Source of the DNA: a virus
IMG/VR virus record: IMGVR_UViG_3300043811_000226
Direction: 5' to 3' (one strand)
Length of the DNA stretch: 64,000 nucleotides
The notes beneath the pieces were generated by a model. It ran no database searches. It was not told where the DNA came from and saw only the letters and a program-made list of their open reading frames with translations. Positions 2,881 to 40,829 of the stretch are shown here, in pieces. Within the stretch, counting starts at the first letter, position 1. The number at the start of each line of letters is the position of its first letter. A program made the translations under genes and the position numbers.

Positions 2881-3123
2881 CTACTTGCCTCCCTTCTTCT
2901 TATTCCGCGCTAGCGGCACATCTACGAAGCGCGTCTCCTTCTTCACGAGGCGCATCGGCTTGCCGCAGTGCATGAACACGTGGTCCTTGGGCCGGTCCCA
3001 GTAGTCGCCGGCGTGCGCCGAGTTCTGCTCGAAGCACTCGTCGCAGAGCAGCATGATCTGCGAGTTGATGCCCAGTAGGTCGGGCAGGTCCTGCACACGT
3101 ACGCCCTTGTCATTTTCCGCCAC
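2881..3123 (-). CDS. small Zn-binding hypothetical protein
   Basis: CDEC...HCGKPM. Confidence 0.55.
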   Translation of the reverse strand: MAENDKGVRVQDLPDLLGINSQIMLLCDECFEQNSAHAGDYWDRPKDHVFMHCGKPMRLVKKETRFVDVPLARNKKKGGK

Positions 3124-3340
3124 GGACCTCCACCCTTTCTGGTTTCTCTAGTTCCGTGCGTTTCGCTTGCACGCAGTTCGGGCAGCGCCACCCGTGCTCC
3201 TTGCTGAAAGACCAGCCGCTTCTCCTTGCAAGCTTGGCCATGTGCGCCTTATCTCGCGCATTGTCGCGCTGGTCCCATTGCCCGCAGACGCCGCACCAGA
3301 CGGTGTACTGCCTCGAGATGTAGCCCTTGTACTCGCTCAC
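3110..3340 (-). CDS. small Zn-finger hypothetical protein
   Basis: CGVC...GW...CPNC. Confidence 0.6.
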   Translation of the reverse strand: MSEYKGYISRQYTVWCGVCGQWDQRDNARDKAHMAKLARRSGWSFSKEHGWRCPNCVQAKRTELEKPERVEVRGGK

Positions 3341-3822
3341 GCGAGCACCTTGCCCAGGTACTGCACTGCGTCCTGCATCGACTGGAAGATGCGCACAGGC
3401 ACCGTGAGCATCAAGTTGTCGATGAGGCCGAAGTCCTCGACCTCGTGCAAGTCATTCATGTTCAAGGCAGTGAAGCGTTCTTTGTACGTGCTCGTATCCG
3501 AGCAGTAGCCGGCTATGGGCATACCACGCGCGTACCCGTAGCCCATCTCCCACGCTGTGCCGACGTCCATAGAAGGTCCTCGAAAGGCCTCCATGTTCGC
3601 AAGCATGCCGTGACAGCTGTTGATGAACCGAACATTGGCCATGAAGATCTGCGCGGCCATCAGGTGTGGCACCTTGATGTTGTCGAGGACCGCGTCGAGA
3701 GGGAACACGCCCTCCAGGCCGCGAGTAGTACACTCGTCCTTGATGGTCTTCGCGTGCTCCTTCGCGTTCCTGAAGAAGACGTCCGGTCCTGCTAGGTAGA
3801 TGCGCTTCATTGTCTTGTCCAT
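3337..3822 (-). CDS. nucleoside 2-deoxyribosyltransferase family protein
   Basis: IYLAGPDVF, FPLD, D-x-GTAWEMGYGYARGMP motifs; AGGAG RBS before 3822. Confidence 0.9.
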   Translation of the reverse strand: MDKTMKRIYLAGPDVFFRNAKEHAKTIKDECTTRGLEGVFPLDAVLDNIKVPHLMAAQIFMANVRFINSCHGMLANMEAFRGPSMDVGTAWEMGYGYARGMPIAGYCSDTSTYKERFTALNMNDLHEVEDFGLIDNLMLTVPVRIFQSMQDAVQYLGKVLA

Positions 3823-3845
3823 CGCTCTGCTCCTGTCACTGCGGC

Positions 3846-3854
3846 TGGTATCAT
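3846..3854 (+). promoter_or_regulatory. extended -10 (TGgTATCAT), probably leaderless
   Basis: 8 nt upstream of the ATG at 3863; no SD. Confidence 0.45.
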
Positions 3855-3862
3855 CAGCGCCC

Positions 3863-4291
3863 ATGAAGATTCTTCTCGTGGAGGACGACGCCAACTTCCG
3901 GCGCGCCTTGGTACGCCTGCTTGAAGAAGCGGGCCACACGGTGTGCTACGCGCCGCGATTCTCGGACGCGATGCTGCATCTGGTCAACGAGAAGGACCTC
4001 GACATCGTCCTTCTCGACATCATCCTCGGGGAGAACGAGCTCACGGGGCTCGATGTCGCCCGCGCGATGCGTGAGCACGAGGCGTGGCGTCGCATCCCCG
4101 TCATCGTCACGAGCACGCTCCGGCCCACCGTCGTACGCACGCGCGCCAGTACGTACGCCTTCGATGGGCTGAAGTGCGTCATGCTCGAGAAGACCGACTT
4201 CGCCGGCAACTTCGAGCTGCTGCTTGAGACCATGACGAAGATGGTCAGTCCACCGTCTGAACCACAAGCTCCTCCGGACTCGGATCCTTAG
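3863..4291 (+). CDS. stand-alone CheY-like response regulator receiver domain
   Basis: MKILLVEDD, DIVLLDIIL (phospho-Asp), GLDVA, IPVIVTS, terminal K motif; opposite strand to neighbours. Confidence 0.88.
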   Translation: MKILLVEDDANFRRALVRLLEEAGHTVCYAPRFSDAMLHLVNEKDLDIVLLDIILGENELTGLDVARAMREHEAWRRIPVIVTSTLRPTVVRTRASTYAFDGLKCVMLEKTDFAGNFELLLETMTKMVSPPSEPQAPPDSDP

Positions 4292-5113
4292 CCCCGCTCG
4301 ACCTTCACCCGCACCTTCGCACCGAGCGGGTAGAAGCCGAGCTCGTCACGCGGAATGAAGAGTGAGACTCCGCGGTGCATCTTGCCTCCCAACTTCTCGC
4401 CTACGAGGTCGATGCGACTCGTGCCGCGCGCCGCTTCATCGAAGGCAACGCCACCAGCCACCTTGTACTCCCCCAGTGAGGTCACAACGAACGGCGTCTC
4501 GGGCGCCGGCTTCTTCTTGGTCTTCTTAGCTTGCTTGCCCATCACTTCTCCTTTGGCTTGCGCGCTCGGCGCACCAGCATGACCTCGTCGCCGTAGATGT
4601 GCACGACGTAGTCCGCCTTCTCGTGCTGCGCCTCGTACACCTCATTACCGATGAGAAAGCCTCGCAGGTTCTTGACGATCTTGTACTTGCCGCCACGCAG
4701 CCCAGTCTTTCTTGGAATGCCGGGGCGCGTCTTGACGATGTCGCCATGCCTGAACGACTGCTTCTTCACTCGCTTGGTGGCCATCACCCCTCCTTTCGCA
4801 GCAGTGGCTTGCCGAAAATGAGATCCTCGCGCGTCATCCCGAGCTCCTTACACACCCGGTCTAGTGCCTTCTGCTGGTTCTCTCCCACCTTGATGGCAGC
4901 TTCCAGCGCACCCCGGTTGATGGCACGGCTCTGTGCGAGCTCCTCACGCAACGCAGCCAGCTCCGCCTCAAGCTGCTTCGAGTAGGCGTAGTAGGACTGC
5001 ACGTCGAGGCAGACGTCGCAGTAGCGCTGCATGGCACCGTCCTTCCAGACGTGCTTCCCAGGCTCACACTGCTTTACTCGTTCGGTGGCCATCGCCAGGT
5101 GTTCTCCTTCCAC
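4288..5113 (-). other. three small hypothetical CDSs (4288-4545, 4542-4787, 4784-5113)
   Basis: 4-nt overlaps typical of translational coupling. Confidence 0.55.
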
Positions 5114-5778
5114 TCGTTCTCCGGAGCCTCATACAATTCGAGTGTCTTGAGCTGCATGGGATGGTCCTCTGGCGCGAAGAAGACCTGCACAGCAATCTGC
5201 CCCTCATCCTTCTGGATCACGCGCGCTGGTCCGACGCGCGTCACGATAGCCGGGCGGATGCTGAGCGCACTACGGCCTGTTAGCACCATCACATGGACGA
5301 TGTTGCCGATCCTAGGCTTTCGCGACTTCGCGAAGGTGTAGCTTCCTACCCACGGCTTCTTTGTCACCAGGTCTGCCGGTGGAGCGTCTGCGCGCACGTG
5401 GGCTGCGAAGTCACGGACGTCCTTGATGAAGGCCTTCTCGGACGCGAGGTCGTCCTCGTCGTGGTCGCAGTCGGCCACGATGACCGACATCGCGTCCTCG
5501 AGGCGAGAGGCACACTGCTCAAGGAACAGAGCGATGTCCTCCTTCAGAGGACCGGGCATTTTGTTCTCTGGCTCGTCGCGCTTCAACTCCCTGATGTCGC
5601 CAGCCAAGCAGTGCCCGGCCACAATGTCCCGCCGCTCAACAAGCTGCGCCGCCTTCTCGATCGCGTCGTTCCAAGTGTCGTCCACAAGCTGCGAGAAGAG
5701 TCTGGCAGTCTGTCGTCGAGCTTCCTCATTAGGTATGAACCCGAGCCAGTGCATGTACACTTTTTCTACGTCATTCAT
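5074..5778 (-). CDS. hypothetical multi-domain phage protein
   Basis: Start moved to MNDVEKVY; C-terminal PRIGNIVH...RPAIVT...W-R-W-P segment. Confidence 0.55.
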   Translation of the reverse strand: MNDVEKVYMHWLGFIPNEEARRQTARLFSQLVDDTWNDAIEKAAQLVERRDIVAGHCLAGDIRELKRDEPENKMPGPLKEDIALFLEQCASRLEDAMSVIVADCDHDEDDLASEKAFIKDVRDFAAHVRADAPPADLVTKKPWVGSYTFAKSRKPRIGNIVHVMVLTGRSALSIRPAIVTRVGPARVIQKDEGQIAVQVFFAPEDHPMQLKTLELYEAPENEWKENTWRWPPNE

Positions 5779-6170
5779 GGTGTCAGGTCCTTCAGGTCGT
5801 ACCCGCAGAACGGGCAGTAGTTGATAGTGAGGTAGCTGTTGCCACCGTCTTTGATGGGCATGCCGTAACCAATGCGGCGGTCGAGGTCGTAGCGCGGCAC
5901 GATGAGGATATCCGGGCACTGGCTGCGAGCTGAATACATGTGGTGCCTACAGTCCGGCATCTTGAGCTGCTTCTCCATCTGGTCGCAGCAGTACTTCTTC
6001 GCAGAGCCAACCTCGCGCACTTTGCAAATGCAGGCCGTGAAGCGCCCACCACCGTCTTCCCGGTAGAACGAGTACTCGCCGAGTGGCTCGCCCTTGGTGA
6101 TGCGGAACTCGACTGCTGCCTTCACCCACACGCCGCCTACTTCTACTTCAACGACGACGCCCTTCTTCAT
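5775..6170 (-). CDS. hypothetical Cys-rich protein
   Basis: YCCDQM...INYCPFCG. Confidence 0.6.
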   Translation of the reverse strand: MKKGVVVEVEVGGVWVKAAVEFRITKGEPLGEYSFYREDGGGRFTACICKVREVGSAKKYCCDQMEKQLKMPDCRHHMYSARSQCPDILIVPRYDLDRRIGYGMPIKDGGNSYLTINYCPFCGYDLKDLTP

Positions 6171-6181
6171 GTTGTTCTCCT

Positions 6182-6571
6182 TCAGCCGTACGTCCGGTAG
6201 CCGTGGATGAACATCGGCTTCTCGTCAGCGCGTGCGATCATCGTGTCCGAGAACGTCACGCGCCAGATGCGCTCCACGGGAAGACCTGTCTCGATGTTCC
6301 AGAGGATGGCGATGCTCTGGACAGGCAGGTCGTACGCATGCAGCGCAGCGAGCGCACGAAAGCCCTCGGCATCGCTCCATCCTCTCGGCGGGATGTCTAC
6401 CGTCGGTTCTGCGTAGGAGTGCCCCTTGCCACCCTCACACGACTGGCAGGTGTAGATGCCTGCTGCGTGCAGCACCCTCACCGCGAAGCGAATGCCCTTG
6501 TCGAGCCCCTTGTAGAAGTTCTCCGGCTCCATGATGTCACGCATCACGGTCTTCACCGCTTTGGTCGCCAT
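6182..6571 (-). CDS. conserved hypothetical phage protein
   Basis: LDKGI..AVRVL..AGIYTCQSCEG; GGAGG RBS; preceded by the promoter motif. Confidence 0.65.
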   Translation of the reverse strand: MATKAVKTVMRDIMEPENFYKGLDKGIRFAVRVLHAAGIYTCQSCEGGKGHSYAEPTVDIPPRGWSDAEGFRALAALHAYDLPVQSIAILWNIETGLPVERIWRVTFSDTMIARADEKPMFIHGYRTYG

Positions 6572-6587
6572 GTTGTTCCTCCGTGGT

Positions 6588-6617
6588 TCTTATGCCGCGG
6601 AGGCTACGACTACTTGT
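6588..6617 (-). promoter_or_regulatory. phage bipartite promoter-like motif
   Basis: ACAAG-N-CGCGGCATAAGA on the minus strand. Confidence 0.6.
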
Positions 6618-7137
6618 CTTCGCGCATGGCGTCCAGGCAGCGCTCGACCTCTTTCATCTGCGCGACGTTGCCCTCGAAGATGGCGCGCAGCGCCTGAACG
6701 GGAGGCCCTGCCACATCACCGCCGCGGTCATGCAATTCGCACCCTTTTCGAATGACCGGAGGCTTGTCCCACAAGCGGCAGCCGCACGGCAGGTCGGGTG
6801 GTAGAGGCCGCGGCCCCAAGCCCTCGCGCCCAGGCCCAGAGACCAGCGCCTCAGGGTTCTTCTTGATCTCCTCGAGCTCCTTCTTGGACTGCGTGAGGAG
6901 CTTGTTCTTGCTCACCGTCACGTGAGGCACACCATCGGGGCCGACCGAGACGTTGACTGGCCCTAGCTCCGACATCTCGCTCAGCTTGCGATTGAGCAGA
7001 CGGTTGAATGCCTTCTGCTTGCGTCGCCCGTGACGGTTGCCGTTGGGCTGCGTCTGCGTCGAGAGCTTCGCTTCTTCCTGTGCGTTCGCCGTGGTCTCAG
7101 TGAGGTATGTGAGCGCGCGAACACTACGAGTCTTCAT
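6610..7137 (-). CDS. hypothetical protein
   Basis: ORF track, RBS GGAG. Confidence 0.55.
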   Translation of the reverse strand: MKTRSVRALTYLTETTANAQEEAKLSTQTQPNGNRHGRRKQKAFNRLLNRKLSEMSELGPVNVSVGPDGVPHVTVSKNKLLTQSKKELEEIKKNPEALVSGPGREGLGPRPLPPDLPCGCRLWDKPPVIRKGCELHDRGGDVAGPPVQALRAIFEGNVAQMKEVERCLDAMREDK

Positions 7138-18140: not shown

Positions 18141-19164
18141 CTACGCGGAGCGAACGATCATGTCCTCCTTCTTGACGGCGCACTCGAGCATGCGCTGTGT
18201 GTCATCGGGGGACGTGTTGCTGGCCACGCCGACGAAGGCGCCTTCTTCGTCGGTGACGACAACAACGATGCGTCCGCCCTTTGGCATCTGCCAAACAGTG
18301 TCATCAACCACGCCTCGCGCAAAGGAGGCCAGCTCCTTCCGTGTAGCAGGCCTTGGCGGCTTCTTTTTGGGCGGCTCCTCGGAAATAGGTCCTTGCCTGT
18401 AGCTGTTCGGCACTTGATGAAGGACCTGTCCTACGCATCCGATGTCCTTCCAGCTCGTGCCATGCACCGTAGGGGAGGACGTTACGCAGGTGACGAGGAC
18501 GTCGGCACCATCAGGTGTGGTGTACTTGCAGGAGCCTCCGACCTTGGCCTGGCTGTACGAGAACCAGCCATAGAGCTTCTCGCTGGGGTCCTTCTGCTTG
18601 CGTATCACAGTCCCAGCGCTCCCTTGGCAATCTGCTCAGCAGCCATAAAGGCTCGAGCACCCATCAGCACGAAGCGCTCTCGGTCGGCGCTGATAGCAAG
18701 GATGGCCTCGAGGGCCTTCTTCAAGTTCGCCGGTGCCTTGAAGCCCTTGCTGAAGAGAGCTGCCTTGATGTCGCCCGCGAGCTCAGGGTCGGCGTCCTTG
18801 TAGTCCTCAGCCAGCTCCCATAGGGCGCGCTGCGCATGCGGGTCCTTGAAGCTGAGTACGATCTTGCCAGCAGGCAAGTCGGGGTGCTTGTCACTCTTGA
18901 ACTCTCCCTCAATTAGATGATGGCCCATGGTGTCCTCCATGCTTCTTATGCCTTCTGCTCGTCGAGGGTTGCCTGCGCCTCTTCCTCGTCCTCTTCCCCA
19001 CCACGCCGATCACACTCTTCTACGAGTTCGTCGCGTGCACGCTCGAAGGCCAGGTACTCCTTCGAACCCTCCGCGATGTCGTCGGGGAACAGGTTGTCGC
19101 CGTTCTCCCGGAGGTAGTAGGCGAGCTCTCGAAGGAGCTTCTTCTTTGCACGGGCCTTGTTCAT
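18141..19164 (-). other. three hypothetical CDSs (18141-18608, 18605-18928, 18946-19164)
   Basis: RBSs present; 18605-18928 has an F.SDK.P...SFKDP.A..AL motif. Confidence 0.6.
18944..18972 (-). promoter_or_regulatory. phage bipartite promoter-like motif
   Basis: GCAACC-N-AGGCATAAGAAGCATGGAGG. Confidence 0.6.
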
Positions 19165-19175
19165 GTAGTTCCTCT

Positions 19176-19210
19176 GGCTAAAAGAAGAGGCGCGTATTGC
19201 GCACCCCTTC
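19176..19210 (-). terminator. intrinsic terminator with TTTTAGCC tail
   Basis: GAAGGGGTGCGC/GCGCCTCTTC imperfect stem. Confidence 0.6.
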
Positions 19211-19216
19211 CCTACT

Positions 19217-19786
19217 TCACTCCGGTGACCAGGTGGCTGACCAGAGCTGCTTCACCTGTGCTTCTCGCTCGGGAGACACGCTTCCCAAGTTGTACAGCAG
19301 CGCACGCGTATTACGCACCTCTGATGCCAGATGGTCCGCCCACGCTTTCTCCCACTGCGGGTTGTTCTTCTCTTGGAACCGACGCGCAAGAATGTGTCGG
19401 CGCATGGCGATGACCGCATCCTGTCCCAGCAACGTGTTCGTGAGAAGCGCGTTGATCTGGAGGATGCGCAGAAAGAGCTCCAGGATCTCGAGGAAAGGGT
19501 ACTCGCGCAACCTCAGTGCGAGCGCACGCGGGTCTCCCTTCGGAAGAACGTCGAGACTGAGAGGCGGTAGCGTGGACTGGCTCTTCGCGACTTGCGCGAG
19601 AGCCTGCACGACGTGCATGCGGTGCGGCTGGCACAGCCCGGAGCAGAGGGTCGTGAAGATCTTCTGATCCGAGCAGAGCGCGAGAGTAGCAGCGCAGTCT
19701 GCAGCGTCTTCCGTGTTCTTCGCGCGGCAGATGACGCATGCCTTGTTGTCTTCGGTGACGGTCGTCGGTACTTGGTGGGTGTTCAT
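19217..19786 (-). CDS. hypothetical protein with N-terminal Cys cluster
   Basis: GGAGG RBS; promoter motif at 19803-19831. Confidence 0.6.
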   Translation of the reverse strand: MNTHQVPTTVTEDNKACVICRAKNTEDAADCAATLALCSDQKIFTTLCSGLCQPHRMHVVQALAQVAKSQSTLPPLSLDVLPKGDPRALALRLREYPFLEILELFLRILQINALLTNTLLGQDAVIAMRRHILARRFQEKNNPQWEKAWADHLASEVRNTRALLYNLGSVSPEREAQVKQLWSATWSPE

Positions 19787-19802
19787 GAGGGGCCTCCAGT
19801 AC

Positions 19803-19831
19803 TCTTGTTCCCGAATCGTACCTTCTTTTGC
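19803..19831 (-). promoter_or_regulatory. phage bipartite promoter-like motif
   Basis: GCAAAAG-N11-CGGGAACAAGA. Confidence 0.6.
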
Positions 19832-19872
19832 CTAAAAAGAAGGCCCCCGCCGCCATAGCGGAGAGGGCCTTC
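19830..19872 (-). terminator. intrinsic terminator closing the RAMP/array locus
   Basis: GAAGGCCC...GGGCCTTC stem followed by TTTTTAGGC on the minus strand. Confidence 0.7.
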
Positions 19873-19874
19873 AA

Positions 19875-20449
19875 GGCAGGGCGGGACTCGAACTGGCACG
19901 TCACGCGCTACGGGTCGACGTGGCATGTCTAGCGGGCGGGCTTGTGCAGGCGCGGCTTGTCACCTCGCGTAGTAAGGGGTGGGGTGGGCTTGTCACCTAG
20001 ACGCGGTATGAGAAGATTGGGCTCGTCGCGAGGAAGGACGCGGTCGGACGGGACTTCGGCATGGTTCGTCGCCAGGGATGTTCCGACTGGGGTTGGCTTG
20101 TCACACGGCTGGCCTGGGCATGGTTTGTCATGTCGGGATGGTGGAGTACGACACGTCGCACGTGATGGAGCGACTTGGCGCAAGATGGCTCGTCACCTGG
20201 GCAGGTCCTATGAGACTAGGCATGTCGCTGGGGACGACTGGACTTGGCTCGTCGAGGGGGGGGGGGGTGTGTGGCTAGTCTTGGCACGTCACGAGGCATT
20301 GTTCGGGACGGAATGTCTCCTGGCCTGGAAGATCACGGTGTGGTCAGGGATGTCATTCTGGTGCGACTCGGAGTGGAGAGGCTTGTCTCGTGGAAGGGAT
20401 CGGGTTGGGCAGAGAAAGCTCGTCGCCGAGGCTAGTACTGGTGCGTCGC
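19875..20449. repeat. pentamer-register repeat array, downstream of the RAMP gene; candidate guide-RNA array
   Basis: 18 GTCRY-type anchors from 19900 to 20445; all 17 spacings equal 2 or 3 mod 5; filled with G[G/A]N-NN pentamers. Confidence 0.88.
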
Positions 20450-21223
20450 TCAGTTCTCGGCGGAGGCTTCGGAGGGCGCCTTCTTCTTACCGCCCTTCTC
20501 CTTCTTCTCCCCATTCGAGGCTTCGTCCTTGTCCTCATCCTTGGTCGTGACCTTCACCTTCTGCACCACGGTGAAGTCGGCGACGTCGAACTTGCCCATG
20601 CCCTGACTGCGGTCGGCGCCGATGCCGTCCTCCTGACCGAACGTGAGCATCTCGACGATGTCCTTCTCGCCGAGGTAGCGTGAGTCGCTCGGGTGGGTCT
20701 TGAGCACCCAGATCTCGAAGGTGAGCTCGACGCCCTCGCAGTAGTCGACCTTCTTCAGGGCCGTGCGCGGGCCCAGCGGCGTCTGCACGTGGATGGGACC
20801 TTCCTCGTTGCCGTCGGGCTCCTTGCGGTCGAGATAGTGGCGCTGGCCGCCATCCATGGCCTTGATCTCGAAGCCGTGCTGGAGCAGGTCTTTCGACCCG
20901 CGCTTGTTCTTGGTGAAGCGCAACATGGTCGCGCACTCCTTGAAGAGCGCCTTGATCTGCCGCGATTCGATGAACAGGCCCTTCTCCGGGTCGGCCTTGA
21001 ACGTGTTCCAGCTCTTCTCGGTGACCTTGTCGGTCAGGTCCTTGAGCGCTTCCTGGGTCTGGACCTCGGTCTGCTTGTCGTCGAAGCCGGTGCCGGCCTT
21101 GATCCAGTCCTTGATGAGGTCCGGGTTCTTCGGGAAGCCGCCGCAGATCTTCTCGCGGAAGCGGACGGTCACCTTGTAGATGTCGTAGAGAGCGCGGGAC
21201 GAGAAGTCGTGGGTCGTGGTCAT
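20450..21223 (-). CDS. solitary Cas7/Csm3-like RAMP-superfamily protein
   Basis: N-terminal strand YKVTVRFREKICGG, IESRQIKALFKECA (IPGSSLKG-like), C-terminal G-rich loop GIGADRSQGMGKFDV; AGGAG RBS. Confidence 0.8.
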   Translation of the reverse strand: MTTTHDFSSRALYDIYKVTVRFREKICGGFPKNPDLIKDWIKAGTGFDDKQTEVQTQEALKDLTDKVTEKSWNTFKADPEKGLFIESRQIKALFKECATMLRFTKNKRGSKDLLQHGFEIKAMDGGQRHYLDRKEPDGNEEGPIHVQTPLGPRTALKKVDYCEGVELTFEIWVLKTHPSDSRYLGEKDIVEMLTFGQEDGIGADRSQGMGKFDVADFTVVQKVKVTTKDEDKDEASNGEKKEKGGKKKAPSEASAEN

Positions 21224-21258
21224 GAGGTTGTTCTCCTAGGTGGGGGAAAAAGGAAGAA

Positions 21259-22037
21259 GGATAGGCAGGTATCGGCGTGGCCTGTCGCACGGAAGGGGTG
21301 CGGTTGGGCATGTCACGCAGGTGAGGCGAGCATCGGCGTAGATAGTCGCGAGGGCTTGTCCAAAGTCGACTTGTGTTGTCACAAGGGATTGGTGCAGATG
21401 GTCACGAGGCTTGGACGGACGCGGATAGTCGTGATGGCCCGTGACGGGTTGCTTCGGCATGTCGCAACGGTGTGACTAGTACTGGTCCGCGGCAGGTGTG
21501 GTCAGTCGCGGCGGCTTGAGTCGGCACGGCATGTCGCGCGGTTGGGTAAGGTGTGGTTAGTCGCCGAGACGAGGAAGGTCCTGGGTTGCGATGGGTAGTC
21601 GCCGTGGTTTGTTACGAGACGAATCGGCATGTCACCAAGGCAAAGGTTGGCGCGGCATGTCGCATCGGCGGGATATGGGAAGGCACGTCGCAACGGATAG
21701 AACAGGTTCGTCGCATGTCGAGGTGCGGTCCAGTTTGCCGCTACGGCAGGGGCGAAGTTAGAAACGGATCGTCGCGAAGACGTAGCTCAGGAAGGCAGGT
21801 CACCTAGACGAGAAAGGGATGACCAGTCGCGAAGGGGAGGACTGAAGAGACGAGGCATGTCGCGTGGTCCAGCATGCGTCGGATCGGCCCGTCGTGCAGG
21901 CGTGAATGGACTAGGTATGTCGCGAGGTCGGGATAGGGCTGGCTTGTCGCGCAGACTCGAGTGGGAATGGACTGTCGCCTGGTTCGGTAGGAAGTGGACT
22001 GTCACTACGGGACGGGTAGGGTTGGCTTGATTGTCCC
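21259..22037. repeat. pentamer-register repeat array, upstream of the RAMP gene; candidate guide-RNA array
   Basis: 25 anchors from 21284 to 22001; 22 of 24 spacings equal 2 or 3 mod 5; e.g. GGTTG GGTAA GGTGT GGTTA GTCGC at 21540-21564. Confidence 0.9.
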
Positions 22038-23277
22038 GTCAGTGAGATCGACGAACCCGACGAAGTAATACCTCCATCCCATGCCGTGCTCGGTGTCCTT
22101 GGGGTACTTCTCCGGCGGCTCCGTGAATGTGCAGCCCTCACCCACCTTCAAGAACTGCAGGTGGCCAAGGCTCGCGCTGTCCATGGCGATGTTCTGGAAT
22201 GCGGCCCATGTACCACCGCGCTCGCGCATCTGCTCGAGCGCTTCTTCTGCAGGCGTAGCGTCTCCCAGAAGAGGGTGCGGCTTGATCACGGAGAGGCCCT
22301 CAAGGCCGTGAGCAGCCGGTCGTACTTTAGGTACACCGACTCAATGCTCTCATCGGAGTTACGTAGACCTGCGTAGAAGCGAACACCTACGTCATCGATA
22401 ACGACCTGATCGATCTCTGTGCGCTCCACGTCTCCAAGGGCTTCTTCGAGCACCGAGTCACGCGACGAGTCAAGAAAGAGAAGTACCTCCTCCTGCTCGA
22501 ACGTCGCCAGCTCCGACGTGTTGAGCACATCTTCTAGATCAGCGTTCTCGTAGTAGCAACAGGCGGTGTCGTCGGCGAAGAACATGTCCCAGAGCCCGTC
22601 GTCCTTGCTCCGAACCATCTGAAAGAGCTCTTGACGTACAAGCAGCTTCTGGATGTTCTCCTTGCTGAGATCGACGACCGCGACTCCGTGCCATCCAAGA
22701 GTGGCGCCGTCCGTAGCACTCACTTCCAGAATGAACTTCATCAGAGTCTCCCTTCTGCGCGTATGCGCTGAACTTCCTTCGCGACGGCGATGAAACCCTT
22801 GGCGAGAAATGACTGTGTCCTACGCAGCTCACCCCACGAGGCAAGCCGTATGCGTATGCCGGTACCGCGCCTGTAGACCTCCCACAACTTCTTTGCGAGG
22901 CGTTCTACGCGTGCTTCCTCGAGCTTCTTGTTTGTCTTTTTGGCGGTCCTGTTCAACGGCATGATGAGCTCCTACAGGCGCCCCTCAGCGCGCAGCTTCT
23001 TCATGATGTCGGCGATGTCGAGGCACGAGTCGAGCCTGGAGAGCTCCCCGCGCTGAAAGAGCAGCTCGGTCACCTCGGCGGCGCTCGCGCCTTGCCCAGG
23101 GCCGTTGGTCTTGGACGCATCGCGCCACGCACGCAGGACCTTCTCCTCATAGGTCTCCCCGGGCCGGGTGGGAGTGAGGGTTGCCGCGGTCTTCTTTTTC
23201 ACGACCTGCGGGATGTAGTCGCGAGCACGCATAGAGCGAGGCGAGATGTCTTCGGATGGAACAGTACGAACGCGCAT
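22005..23277 (-). other. four hypothetical CDSs (22005-22289, 22286-22741, 22741-22962, 22972-23277)
   Basis: Coupled ORFs; the last two both end in RAEGRL. Confidence 0.6.
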
Positions 23278-36811: not shown

Positions 36812-36881
36812 AAAGAAACGGGGATCGGCCTGCGCCGACCCCCGTGTCCCCGATAACGCGTCGCTCGTACTGCCAGAAGAG

Positions 36882-37238
36882 TGGACCCGCGGGGAATCGA
36901 ACCCCGGTCCGACAAACCGTCTGAACGTCTTCTTCACGTGCGTGGTCGGTCTAAGGCTCCCGACAGCCTCGCGGTGTTCGACACAGGCATTCCGCCGCCC
37001 GTCAACCTGTCGTGTCCCCAGCTCCCCGGTTGCGAGAGGGCTGCATGGCTCGTGTATTTACGCCTCCCGGAGTACTCGAACTCCTCCTCCGAGAGACGGA
37101 CTAGGCCGCCAGTTTGACGGCGTTGTCGTTGCTTGCGTTGTCGTTCGCAGGCAGGACGTGCTCACTTGATCAGAGCGGATTGAGCGCCGCTCGCACGCAG
37201 ACAGTTCTTCTTGTTCGCCGTCGAAACCGGTCGGGCCC
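36882..37238 (-). ncRNA. ssrA: tmRNA, tag ANDNASNDNAVKLAA*
   Basis: 5' GGGCCCGACCGGTTTCGAC; 3' GGGGTTCGATTCCCCGCGGGTCCA; G3:U wobble; tag ORF 37148-37101; 357 nt; CCA not encoded. Confidence 0.95.
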
Positions 37239-38153: not shown

Positions 38154-38792
38154 CTTGTTCTCTCCTTCGACCATCTGCCATGGAGACAGCTTCTTCTGCG
38201 GACCATCCGTACTTCACGATGCGCGTCCATGTACGCAAGTAGGGCGCACCAGTAAGCTCAATCAGCTCGCCGATGGACATCTTGCGCCCGTTGTAGACGA
38301 CGAAGCGTGTACTGCGCCTGTTCCTAGACTGCTCCTTAGAAGTCGCCCACACGCAGTGTACCCAAGTTCGTTCTTCTTCCTCTCGATGGAGTAACCAGGA
38401 CCTGGCCGGCGGCCCATATCAGCTAGGAAGTTCTCGAATTTGTGCCAGCGGTGGCAGACAGTGATCCCGCGACCACCGTAGTCCTTGTAGGCCCTGACGT
38501 TCTTGTTGTAGCAACGACGCAGCATACCTGCCCAAATGCCGTACTCAAGACTCTGGTGACCCCTAGGAGCATCACCGTGTGTACGAGAGAGGTCTCCGAC
38601 AGTAAGCCGGCTACTCAAGCAACCGCACGATGTGGTGTGCCCAGACTTCAGATGTCCTGAAGGAACAATGCAGGTGTTGCCGCACAGGCACCAGCACTGC
38701 CACAAGGCACTGCCGCAAGAACTTGTGCCTGTACGTTCTTCCACCTTCAGCCTTCCGAAGGTCTGCAAGGTGAGATCTTCAAACGCTCCCAT
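38137..38792 (-). pseudogene. frameshifted HNH homing endonuclease
   Basis: Paralogue of 30363-31031 split into two frames at about 38355, where GY-xxxN-CVWA has lost its Asn segment. Confidence 0.8.
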
Positions 38793-38828
38793 GAAACCTC
38801 CGGCTTCTGTCAGCCGGTGGCTGACGGG

Positions 38829-40829
38829 TTACCTTCTTCCGAACAGGCGCATGACCCGGTCCGTCAACGACGGCCGGTCGGCCGCGGCGGTCTTGGCGGG
38901 CAGGTGGCCACGCTGAAGGAGCGGGCTGTGGGGGGTACCCTCGCCCGCGTTCACGAAGTTCTGACGCATGAGGGCCTGCTCCGCCGGCGCCGTCGTCTTG
39001 GGGCTGTCGAAGATGCGCTCGAGCAGGCTGCCGCGTCCGTCGCGCGCCTCCTGCAGGGCGGCCTGTCCGTACACGTCCGGGTAGCCGTTGTGTCCCTCGG
39101 CGGGCTTGTCACCCCAACGGGCGTCCAACGTCCCCGGAGAGCGGTCGCCCGGCGGCGTGCGCACATCGGCCACGCCCTTCTGCGTCTCGTCCTCGTTGGT
39201 CTTCGGTGCGTCCGCGCCCTTGGACATGGCCTGCTTCAATGCGTCGACGCTCATGATTCACTCCGTTTGGGTCATTCTACTACGCCGCCGCGGGTCCCGC
39301 GAAGCGCAGAGCCGAAGGCCTGCAGCGGACCCTTGTAGCCCTCGAGCTCCCTACGGGTCACGTCCAGCGCTGCCTCGGTGTCTTTCAAGGACCGCTCGAG
39401 ATCCTGCTTCTCGAGCTCGAGCTTCTTGATGCGCTGGTTCATGACCGAGAGTACTTCCACATGGAAGTCGTTCGACGAGAAGACGCGGAAGCCTTCCCGG
39501 AACCGCTTCAAGATCTCGTTCCAGAGCTCCTCGTCGACCACACCGCACGTCAGCGTGAGTTCAGCGCGGAACTTCTCCCCCTCGGCAATCGCCTGCACGG
39601 CAGCCGAGTGCTTGAACCAGAACGTGATGCCAGCGACTTGTTCTTCATGCTCGTTGCTCACTTGTCCTCCGTGGCGTAGAGCTCACCCAGCAGCTGGATG
39701 TGGTTGCTGTTGAACGCGTCCACCGTGTTGCGTGCGAGAAGCACGCTTCCAAAAGCCTTGCCGATAGAAGTGGCCCTTCTTCGGTCTCCCTTCGCGTACC
39801 GCGTAGCCTCTACAAGAAGCTTCTTGGTGGGCGTGTACACGTCCGGCGTAAGAAACCTCCCCGGCATCACGTACTCGGCATAACGGATGTTGAGGTGCTG
39901 GCGAAGTGTCTCAACTACACCGAGCAGGTCGCGTGTCGATTCTCGCGCGAGCTTCGCACTCTCACCCGCGCTGAGGAGCTTGTCTGCACGGGCCGTAGGG
40001 CCTGTGGACGACCACGATAGGAAGTGGTTCGCCAGGTCCGCCGAAGACACGACACAGAAGGCCACGCGAAGTTTCTCTGTAGCTGGCGACAGCGGGTGCG
40101 GGGGGATGGGTTCCGCCTTGGAAGCCGCCACGAGGATCTTCTTGGCCAGCTGGTCGCCGAGCTTGAACTCGAACTTCGGCGGGGGCTGGCCCCCGATAGA
40201 GCGAACTCCTGTGAGCACCTTGCAGTAGGTCACACATGCACCTCGGACATCCTTTCGGCGAACTCCACAAGCTCCTCGGTGGTCTTTCCTACATCAAGCA
40301 GGAAGTAGTAGAAGTCGTGGCCCACGATCTGAGCCCACTTCTCCTTCTGTGCAGCAACGGGGGTCTGGAAGTAGAGACGGGCGCGGCTGATGAGCTCGAG
40401 TGAACGCGACACGAGCGCCTTCATCCGAAGAGCGCGCGTGCCTTGCAGCTGCGATGCACTGCGTCCTGAGTCGGTCATCTCGTGCTCGGCGACTTCCACA
40501 TTGGATGCTTCCACAGCCGCGCGAAGGGCCGATTCGAACGCGCTGAGCTTGTGGTCGTCAAGGACGGGCCGGTCTTCCGGACTGGCCATGCCCTGCACTA
40601 AGACCGGGTCGAGTCGCTCGAGCACGAGGTTCGCCGAGACGTAGCAAGCCCACGACACCCGGTACGTCGTCATGGCAGGCGTGTTGTCCCCCTCACGGCA
40701 CTTCTCACTGGCGGCGCGCAGTCGCGCAGCAAGGTCGACGTGAAGCAGCTCCGAGCGCTTGAGGTACTCGTTGACGCTGTCGCAGTAACCCCACGCGAAA
40801 GGGTCGAACGTCCACGGTCGCTCGATCAT
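38829..40829 (-). other. four hypothetical CDSs (38829-39254, 39272-39661, 39658-40233, 40230-40829)
   Basis: Coupled overlaps, RBSs. Confidence 0.6.

Follow-up and report, generated by a model that had tools for sequence, protein, structure and literature searches.

A candidate VIPR-class array of short guide units with reversed polarity beside a Csm3-like RAMP gene in a phage-like contig

The intergenic tract at 21260..22037 of the window (the whole 64-kb stretch of viral DNA analysed here) is, to judge from its sequence, a real array of about 25 short guide units in the VIPR class, and a variant within that class by its reversed polarity, its short 5n+3 units, its GYGAC punctuation and its Csm3-like protein. 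Since the class is already in print, the finding is not categorically new. The tract adjoins a lone RAMP gene whose product has a Csm3-like fold, and throughout the family such genes are linked to arrays of fixed polarity whose units turn over rapidly.

VIPR was first described in 2026 preprints as a phage-borne lone RAMP protein (Vipr) acting with guide RNAs (vrRNAs) of tandem pentamers, in which each repeat is occupied by one protomer, the fixed letters (GGY) being sequestered and the two variable ones left to pair with double-stranded DNA with every third target base skipped, and the outcome is the silencing of competing elements (bioRxiv 10.64898/2026.04.26.720920, 10.64898/2026.04.26.720927). 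The type II exemplars come from Escherichia phage SUSP1, whose Vipr is PDB 36pp, and from a Pseudomonas fulva prophage (bioRxiv 10.64898/2026.04.26.720920, 10.64898/2026.04.26.720927, 10.64898/2026.10.15.759431). The first of these papers mentions seven types, along with 'staggered' arrays and NNNGG, YNNNG and NNNNG variants, and every scaffold described in its main text is G-based (bioRxiv 10.64898/2026.04.26.720920); non-GGY cores such as GAC/NN are reported in a separate preprint (bioRxiv 10.64898/2026.10.21.760802).

Anatomy of the array and its module

Read on the minus strand, each unit of the upstream array (21260..22037, 25 units) consists of a G-Y-GAC anchor followed by three to seven pentamers of the form NNN(C)C and then by a linker of 2-3 nt. 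The anchors are GCGAC in 16 cases, GTGAC in six, ACGAC in two and GCGGC in one, and all 25 lie where a first-pass annotation of this DNA had placed them, with plus-strand starts running from 21284 to 22001. The spacings between them are 27, 28, 27, 28, 32, 33, 27, 28, 34, 27, 23, 28, 28, 33, 38, 27, 28, 44, 33, 27, 23, 33, 33 and 28 nt. The same annotation had proposed that spacings take the form 5n+2 or 5n+3, and 22 of the 24 do (15 are 5n+3 and seven 5n+2), the two exceptions, 34 and 44, both being 4 mod 5. The binomial probability of at least 22 in 24 at p = 0.4 is 1.9e-7, a figure to be read with the caveat that the anchors were chosen by eye.

The 5-nt periodicity is also evident in a measure that involves no choice of anchors. 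Minus-strand C has a lag-5 autocorrelation of 0.285, compared with -0.001 +/- 0.035 for dinucleotide shuffles (z 8.3; 0 of 500 shuffles as high), and the lag-10 autocorrelation of C has a z of 4.7. Elsewhere in the window the same lag-5 signal occurs only at 19875-20449. Within the 106 in-phase pentamers of the minus strand, C stands at position 5 in 92 (87%) and at position 4 in 71. The first pentamer after the anchor, which had been singled out earlier as a semi-constant edge, ends in CC in 20 of the 25 units and is ATGCC in six of them. The 24 complete units are all different from one another, as had been claimed, and Tandem Repeats Finder reported nothing on the upstream tract.

The first-pass annotation had also named two ways in which the pattern might dissolve, either into a periodicity no stronger than that of shuffled sequence or into a translated low-complexity protein. 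The periodicity lies well above the shuffles and codon periodicity is absent, the period-3 power of the tract being 0.27 as against 7.6-29 in three neighbouring coding sequences, so neither of these applies. The shuffle test and the lack of codon rhythm together support a phased, non-duplicated array of units that vary in steps of 5 nt. A further suggestion, that the pattern runs into the preceding coding sequence (22005..22289, minus strand, 94 aa), holds only at its very edge: the stop codon TAG overlaps the first anchor, GTGAC, by the shared G at 22005, but no pentamer phase is found within the coding sequence itself.

Strand asymmetry in the tract is strong (GC skew 0.28). In folding calculations on the upstream array neither strand did better than shuffles (z -0.02 and -0.49), which is what would be expected of a protein-coated single-stranded RNA. 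The folding energy is -204 kcal/mol for the minus strand and -307 kcal/mol for the other, the minus-strand RNA being C-rich, G-poor and weakly structured.

The upstream array occupies the whole interval from the stop codon of the preceding coding sequence to the ribosome-binding site of the RAMP gene. The pyrimidine-rich leader that carries this site (AGGAGAA; 21224..21259, minus strand) leaves neither strand with space for a promoter between the array and the gene. The stand-alone RAMP gene (20450..21223, minus strand) is followed by a downstream array of the same kind (19875..20449, minus strand), which holds about 15-18 units, some of them degenerate, and which begins with an anchor that overlaps the gene's TGA stop codon; the two arrays together comprise about 40 units. 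Directly after the downstream array lies an intrinsic terminator, a GC-rich hairpin with a T run (19830..19872, minus strand), which is conserved in the close relative L001.

The genes neighbouring this module all lie on the minus strand. A sigma-70 promoter scan of 18800-23000 returned 0 sites on either strand, Pfam, PHROGs and NCBIfam gave no match above cut-off for the ORFs neighbouring the RAMP gene, and no Cas family scored above cut-off in the RAMP gene or in nine neighbouring ORFs. The 94-aa coding sequence is conserved only in L001 and thus does not represent a family-wide accessory gene. A search of the arrays in the window and in 20 related loci against Rfam yielded neither a ribozyme nor any other family, so that a hammerhead is of no use here for fixing the guide strand. 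The window as a whole has a phage-like gene content that includes a tmRNA, two tRNAs and a helicase of the PIF1/RecD type in a co-directional gene cluster. The tmRNA gene is full-length (36879-37238, minus strand, Rfam 82.5 bits) and sits within a phage-like gene cluster. The two tRNA genes are adjacent (49250-49406, plus strand, Rfam 36 and 56 bits); ARAGORN gave them no amino acid and four-letter anticodons (gaga, tata), and their anticodon loops may be unusual.

The RAMP protein and its family

The best structural match of the RAMP protein (257 aa) is the Csm3/Cmr4/Cas7 fold. It has the thumb, its G-rich loop reads GIGADRSQGMGKF, and its C-terminal tail is charged. Scans of the protein against Pfam, PHROGs and NCBIfam gave nothing above cut-off, and the only sub-threshold matches were of the G-loop to Csm4 and Cas6. 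A first search recovered 128 close relatives, and an exhaustive profile search 1,549 representatives at E<=1e-3. When the broad family profile (A3) was compared with the canonical Vipr profile (A2, which includes SUSP1 Vipr), hhalign returned a probability of 94.7% and an E of 5.7e-8 over 132 columns, and the alignment covers helix 1, the thumb and the G-loop. The narrow family profile reached 4% against canonical Vipr, and single-sequence or pairwise and HMM-to-sequence tests of SUSP1 Vipr against the RAMP family detected no similarity. Judged by the profile comparison, the RAMP protein is a remote homologue of SUSP1-type Vipr, through a link that is remote but real. The residues of SUSP1 Vipr that contact G, D177 and W178, align with Ala-Asp in the RAMP family, and the base preference of SUSP1 Vipr is therefore not transferable.

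To place the module in its family we fetched 28 loci with relatives at 24-91% identity, including a 192-kb NCBI contig, 22 IMG/VR viral contigs and the cultured Microcystis phage Mae-JY09. In 24 of the 28 the RAMP gene has a pentamer array directly upstream, downstream or on both sides, and in every one of these 24 the array is C-rich on the strand of the gene. The Cas7-like RNA-guided system suggested in a companion to the first-pass annotation finds support both in the Cas7/Csm3 fold of the neighbouring protein and in the recurrence of gene and array as a module. Conservation of the neighbouring genes extends no further than the closest relative, L001, which indicates that the module consists of the gene and its arrays.

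The anatomy seen in the window recurs across these loci. A pooled logo of 508 anchors reads C/T-GAC, followed by a semi-constant first pentamer R-W-G-C-C (ATGCC being the commonest) and then by NNN-C(59%)-C(79%). Spacings peak at 23, 28, 33, 38 and 43, with 5n+3 in 236 of 433, and a 29%-identical relative has the anchor TTGCAAC instead. Position 3 of the pentamer carries no purine or pyrimidine bias family-wide beyond the first pentamer, so the exact complement of GGY is absent.

The arrays also sit in a consistent relation to the surrounding genes. Most (24 of 29) start no more than 17 nt from the stop codon of the preceding co-directional ORF or overlap it, upstream arrays end a few tens of nucleotides before the RAMP start codon, and in L008, L013 and L020 the ribosome-binding site of the next gene comes directly after the array. 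In three loci a strong, terminator-like coding-strand hairpin with a T run separates the RAMP gene from the downstream array (L010:3790-3875, L015:3665-3730 and L020:3739-3779), which means that simple read-through is not universal; the T run of L020 ends in TTGACA. The downstream arrays of these three loci may have a promoter of their own or may depend on read-through. A terminator scan of 24 loci gave noisy output that singled out neither strand.

Comparison with L001 indicates how fast the arrays change. This relative is 91% identical, and its flanking genes are 85-92% identical in DNA, yet the alignable parts of the arrays are only five single-unit islands upstream and three downstream. 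As far as these alignments tell, the change is guide-like turnover in which the unit is the inherited piece. The variable letters are hypervariable between the window and this close relative, as they are in VIPR. Local growth is seen as well: L012:3990-4200 contains several consecutive near-identical duplicate units (TCGAC GCACC ATCCC ACG...), so arrays also grow by local unit duplication.

Two members of the survey deserve separate description. Microcystis phage Mae-JY09 (PP395641.1 37713-38930; L005:2962-4178) is a cultured cyanophage with a 29%-identical family member and a C-type array of 470 nt (38460-38930) that reaches almost to the end of the record, and the question of the guide strand might be settled with it in the laboratory. 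On the viral contig L007 two RAMP systems follow one another in the same orientation (784-2510 and 3001-6747). The first comprises a canonical SUSP1-like Vipr of 188 aa (33% identical to SUSP1 Vipr, E 2e-30) and then, on the coding strand, a 1.15-kb GGC/NN array in which GTCTC separates units of 5n+1. The second, two genes further on, contains a member of the present RAMP family and, after further genes, more than 1.6 kb of C-type GCGAC arrays. Among the loci searched, L007 is the only one in which a canonical Vipr accompanies the present family; its 153-aa neighbour has no similarity to SUSP1 vap1.

Relation to VIPR and class 1 CRISPR systems

The locus resembles VIPR in being phage-borne, with relatives both in Microcystis phage Mae-JY09 and on viral contigs of IMG/VR, and in its layout, in which a small RAMP gene stands alone between long intergenic stretches of tandem pentamers, each with some letters fixed and others variable. 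In the SUSP1 locus, which we fetched for comparison, GGY/NN repeats lie on the vipr strand and the RNAs consist of 9-16 repeats with a structured tail, the constant part being 3' of the repeats. Here, in contrast, the strand of the gene carries NNNCC, and GG falls on the opposite strand. The units are also much smaller, with 4-7 pentamers where a type II vrRNA has 9-16 repeats, and in place of the conserved, structured ~40-nt 3' tail of type II stands a GYGAC of 5 nt, at which the phase slips by +3. SUSP1 has four vrRNAs, the two arrays here about 40 units. No conserved vap accessory gene is found here, although vap is typical of VIPR rather than obligatory.

Further points of likeness come from the VIPR variants with staggered arrays or with NNNGG, NNNNG or GAC/NN scaffolds, which, in the terms in which the preprints describe them, share with the present arrays back-to-back guides without long tails, a degenerate scaffold, non-canonical fixed letters and three free letters per pentamer. 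The register differs: staggered arrays are described as having 1-nt overlaps and the canonical units of L007 are 5n+1, whereas the units here are 5n+3.

Class 1 CRISPR RNAs have a 5' tag and a length set by a Cas7 ruler, and the Csm3/Cmr4/Cas7 filaments of types III and VII provide the best structural match for the fold. If the minus strand is the RNA, the resemblance would extend to a short constant 5' handle, a protein-measured guide and length steps of one protomer footprint. In contrast to class 1 CRISPR, however, the step is 5 nt and not 6, there are no 23-50-nt repeats, spacers or other cas genes nearby, and sequence similarity amounts to weak G-loop matches.

Guide strand, proposed mechanism and alternatives

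We propose, and hold to be about as probable as its negation, that the upstream tract is a VIPR-type guide array which, jointly with the downstream array (19875-20449), serves the RAMP gene at 20450-21223, the RNA coming from the strand of the gene. Taking it as given that the tract is a guide array, we lean modestly towards a guide on the gene's (minus) strand. The polarity is fixed in all 24 array-bearing loci, for which co-transcription is the simplest explanation. Several positional features point the same way, namely the starts of arrays at preceding stop codons, their ends near the RAMP start and the ribosome-binding sites of next genes behind them. The terminator that closes the module at 19830-19872 faces the minus strand, and in L007 the G-type array and the C-type arrays belong to one co-directional cluster.

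The alternative that survives best retains the VIPR class and reverses the strand, so that the guide would be the G-rich plus strand, antisense to the RAMP gene, with units of the form 5'-(GGNNN)n-GTCRC-3'. Such a layout would be a short version of the published variable tract with its constant 3' element, and we regard it as possible, if rather doubtful. The vrRNAs presented in the main account of the class are of the GGY/NN kind or NNNGG, YNNNG and NNNNG, and the plus strand here does read GGNNN, with GGCAT as the usual last pentamer before GTCRC; the canonical punctuation in L007, GGCAAC-GTCTC, is similar to GGCAT-GTCGC, and in SUSP1 the constant part stands 3' of the repeats, in the same order. 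Because the arrays abut the RAMP ribosome-binding site and neighbouring genes, however, a G-rich guide would call for antisense promoters inside or beyond coding sequence at every locus, and its RNA would be antisense to a co-directional phage operon. The fixed polarity relative to the gene and the orientation of the terminator after the downstream array likewise tell against it, as does the family-wide lack of pyrimidine bias at position 3 beyond the first pentamer. Its appeal to G-based scaffolds is weakened by the non-G scaffolds that are already known (bioRxiv 10.64898/2026.10.21.760802).

With the guide on the strand of the gene, a mechanism can be outlined. The transcript would run array-gene-array up to the terminator at 19830-19872, and each GYGAC-delimited unit would be one short guide. 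RAMP protomers would coat the unit, one per pentamer, from the GAC anchor on, holding the fixed letters (C4 and C5 on the gene's strand) while the variable letters stay free. Cutting or trimming at the anchors, where the phase slips, would yield RNAs of 23, 28, 33 and 38 nt with a 5' GYGAC(ATGCC)-like handle. The free letters would then enter into gapped pairing with the double-stranded DNA of competing phages or mobile elements and so bring about silencing. The sequences themselves show the anatomy of the arrays, the fold, the linkage with its fixed polarity and the fast turnover of units; RNA binding, processing, the strand, DNA targeting and silencing we infer from the published systems. 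In its fullest form the proposal is of a mirror-code VIPR, in which a Csm3-like RAMP protein would bind a C-scaffold RNA (5'-GYGAC handle, NNN-CC pentamers) cut from the leader and trailer of its own mRNA; to this complete picture we assign somewhat less than an even chance.

Under the published pairing rule the three to six free pentamers of a unit give a single guide little specificity, and the guides may act cooperatively or at multiple sites. We compared 306 clean units from 22 loci with 479 kb of local phage DNA, with arrays masked and order-shuffled guides as the control, under eight rules (two or three free letters, 0-3 skipped bases). There was no excess of matches in these 479 kb under any of the eight rules; the best, NN with a 1-nt skip, gave 12 matches against 9.6 +/- 3.9, which is not significant. 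A single unit specifies at most 14 bases, so that chance matches would swamp any signal in collection-wide scans. We also considered whether the guides might spell start codons, and rejected the idea: ATG is the commonest first triplet (10%), with GAG and AAG nearly equal to it, and later pentamers show no depletion of stop triplets (0.041, against an expected 0.042).

Readings outside guide function fare considerably worse. The C-rich RNA might serve as a decoy or sponge packaged by the RAMP protein, for instance for rival GG-scaffold guide RNAs or for a host factor such as Rho. In formal terms NNNCC repeats complement GGNNN guides, L007 has both kinds of array side by side, and a minus-strand RNA that is C-rich, G-poor and weakly structured resembles a Rho-loading site. 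Nevertheless, of the loci searched only L007 has a canonical Vipr as well, whereas the arrays are universal in the family, and the turnover of units and their fixed linkage to a Vipr homologue fit guide function more simply. We therefore consider a decoy improbable.

It is a shade less probable again that the repeats act as double-stranded DNA, in the manner of an iteron-like or centromere-like field or a replication origin to which a DNA-binding protein would attach. Two repeat fields surround one small gene, a layout of two flanking repeat fields exemplified by plasmid partition loci; a 5-bp step is half a helical turn; and the plus-strand GTC of the anchors recalls primase recognition sites. 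The linked protein, however, has an RNA-binding RAMP fold rather than a DNA-binding one, the GC skew and the strict polarity with the gene are at odds with a DNA element, and the units are hypervariable, unlike conserved binding sites. Finally, chance composition or a translated low-complexity protein has a negligible likelihood, since the minus-strand ORFs of 63-74 aa that could be cited for a protein lie in differing frames, unit lengths are not multiples of 3, period-3 power is far below that of real coding sequences, the periodicity exceeds that of dinucleotide shuffles by 8.3 sd and 24 loci share the conserved architecture.

These observations bear on a class of RNA-guided DNA recognition that is only months old and of which type II alone has been dissected so far. 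The branch described here is populous, with the 1,549 matches to the family profile each representing a sequence cluster, and in all 24 array-bearing loci of the 28 fetched the polarity is opposite to that of the published exemplars, with guides that would be far shorter. If the G-rich strand proved to be the guide, the locus would simply be an inverted, compact member of the known class. An answer on the strand would tell whether the protein family reads a different fixed scaffold and how few repeats suffice for targeting. It would also tell whether a crRNA-like 5' handle and ruler exist among viral RAMPs, and so bears on the proposed transition from VIPR to CRISPR. If the mirror-code proposal is true, the Vipr/Cas7 fold is open to retuning from a G to a C scaffold, and VIPR would include an RNA architecture of the 5'-handle and ruler type that is otherwise familiar from class 1 CRISPR, with crRNA-like short guides, a 5' tag and lengths measured by protomers.
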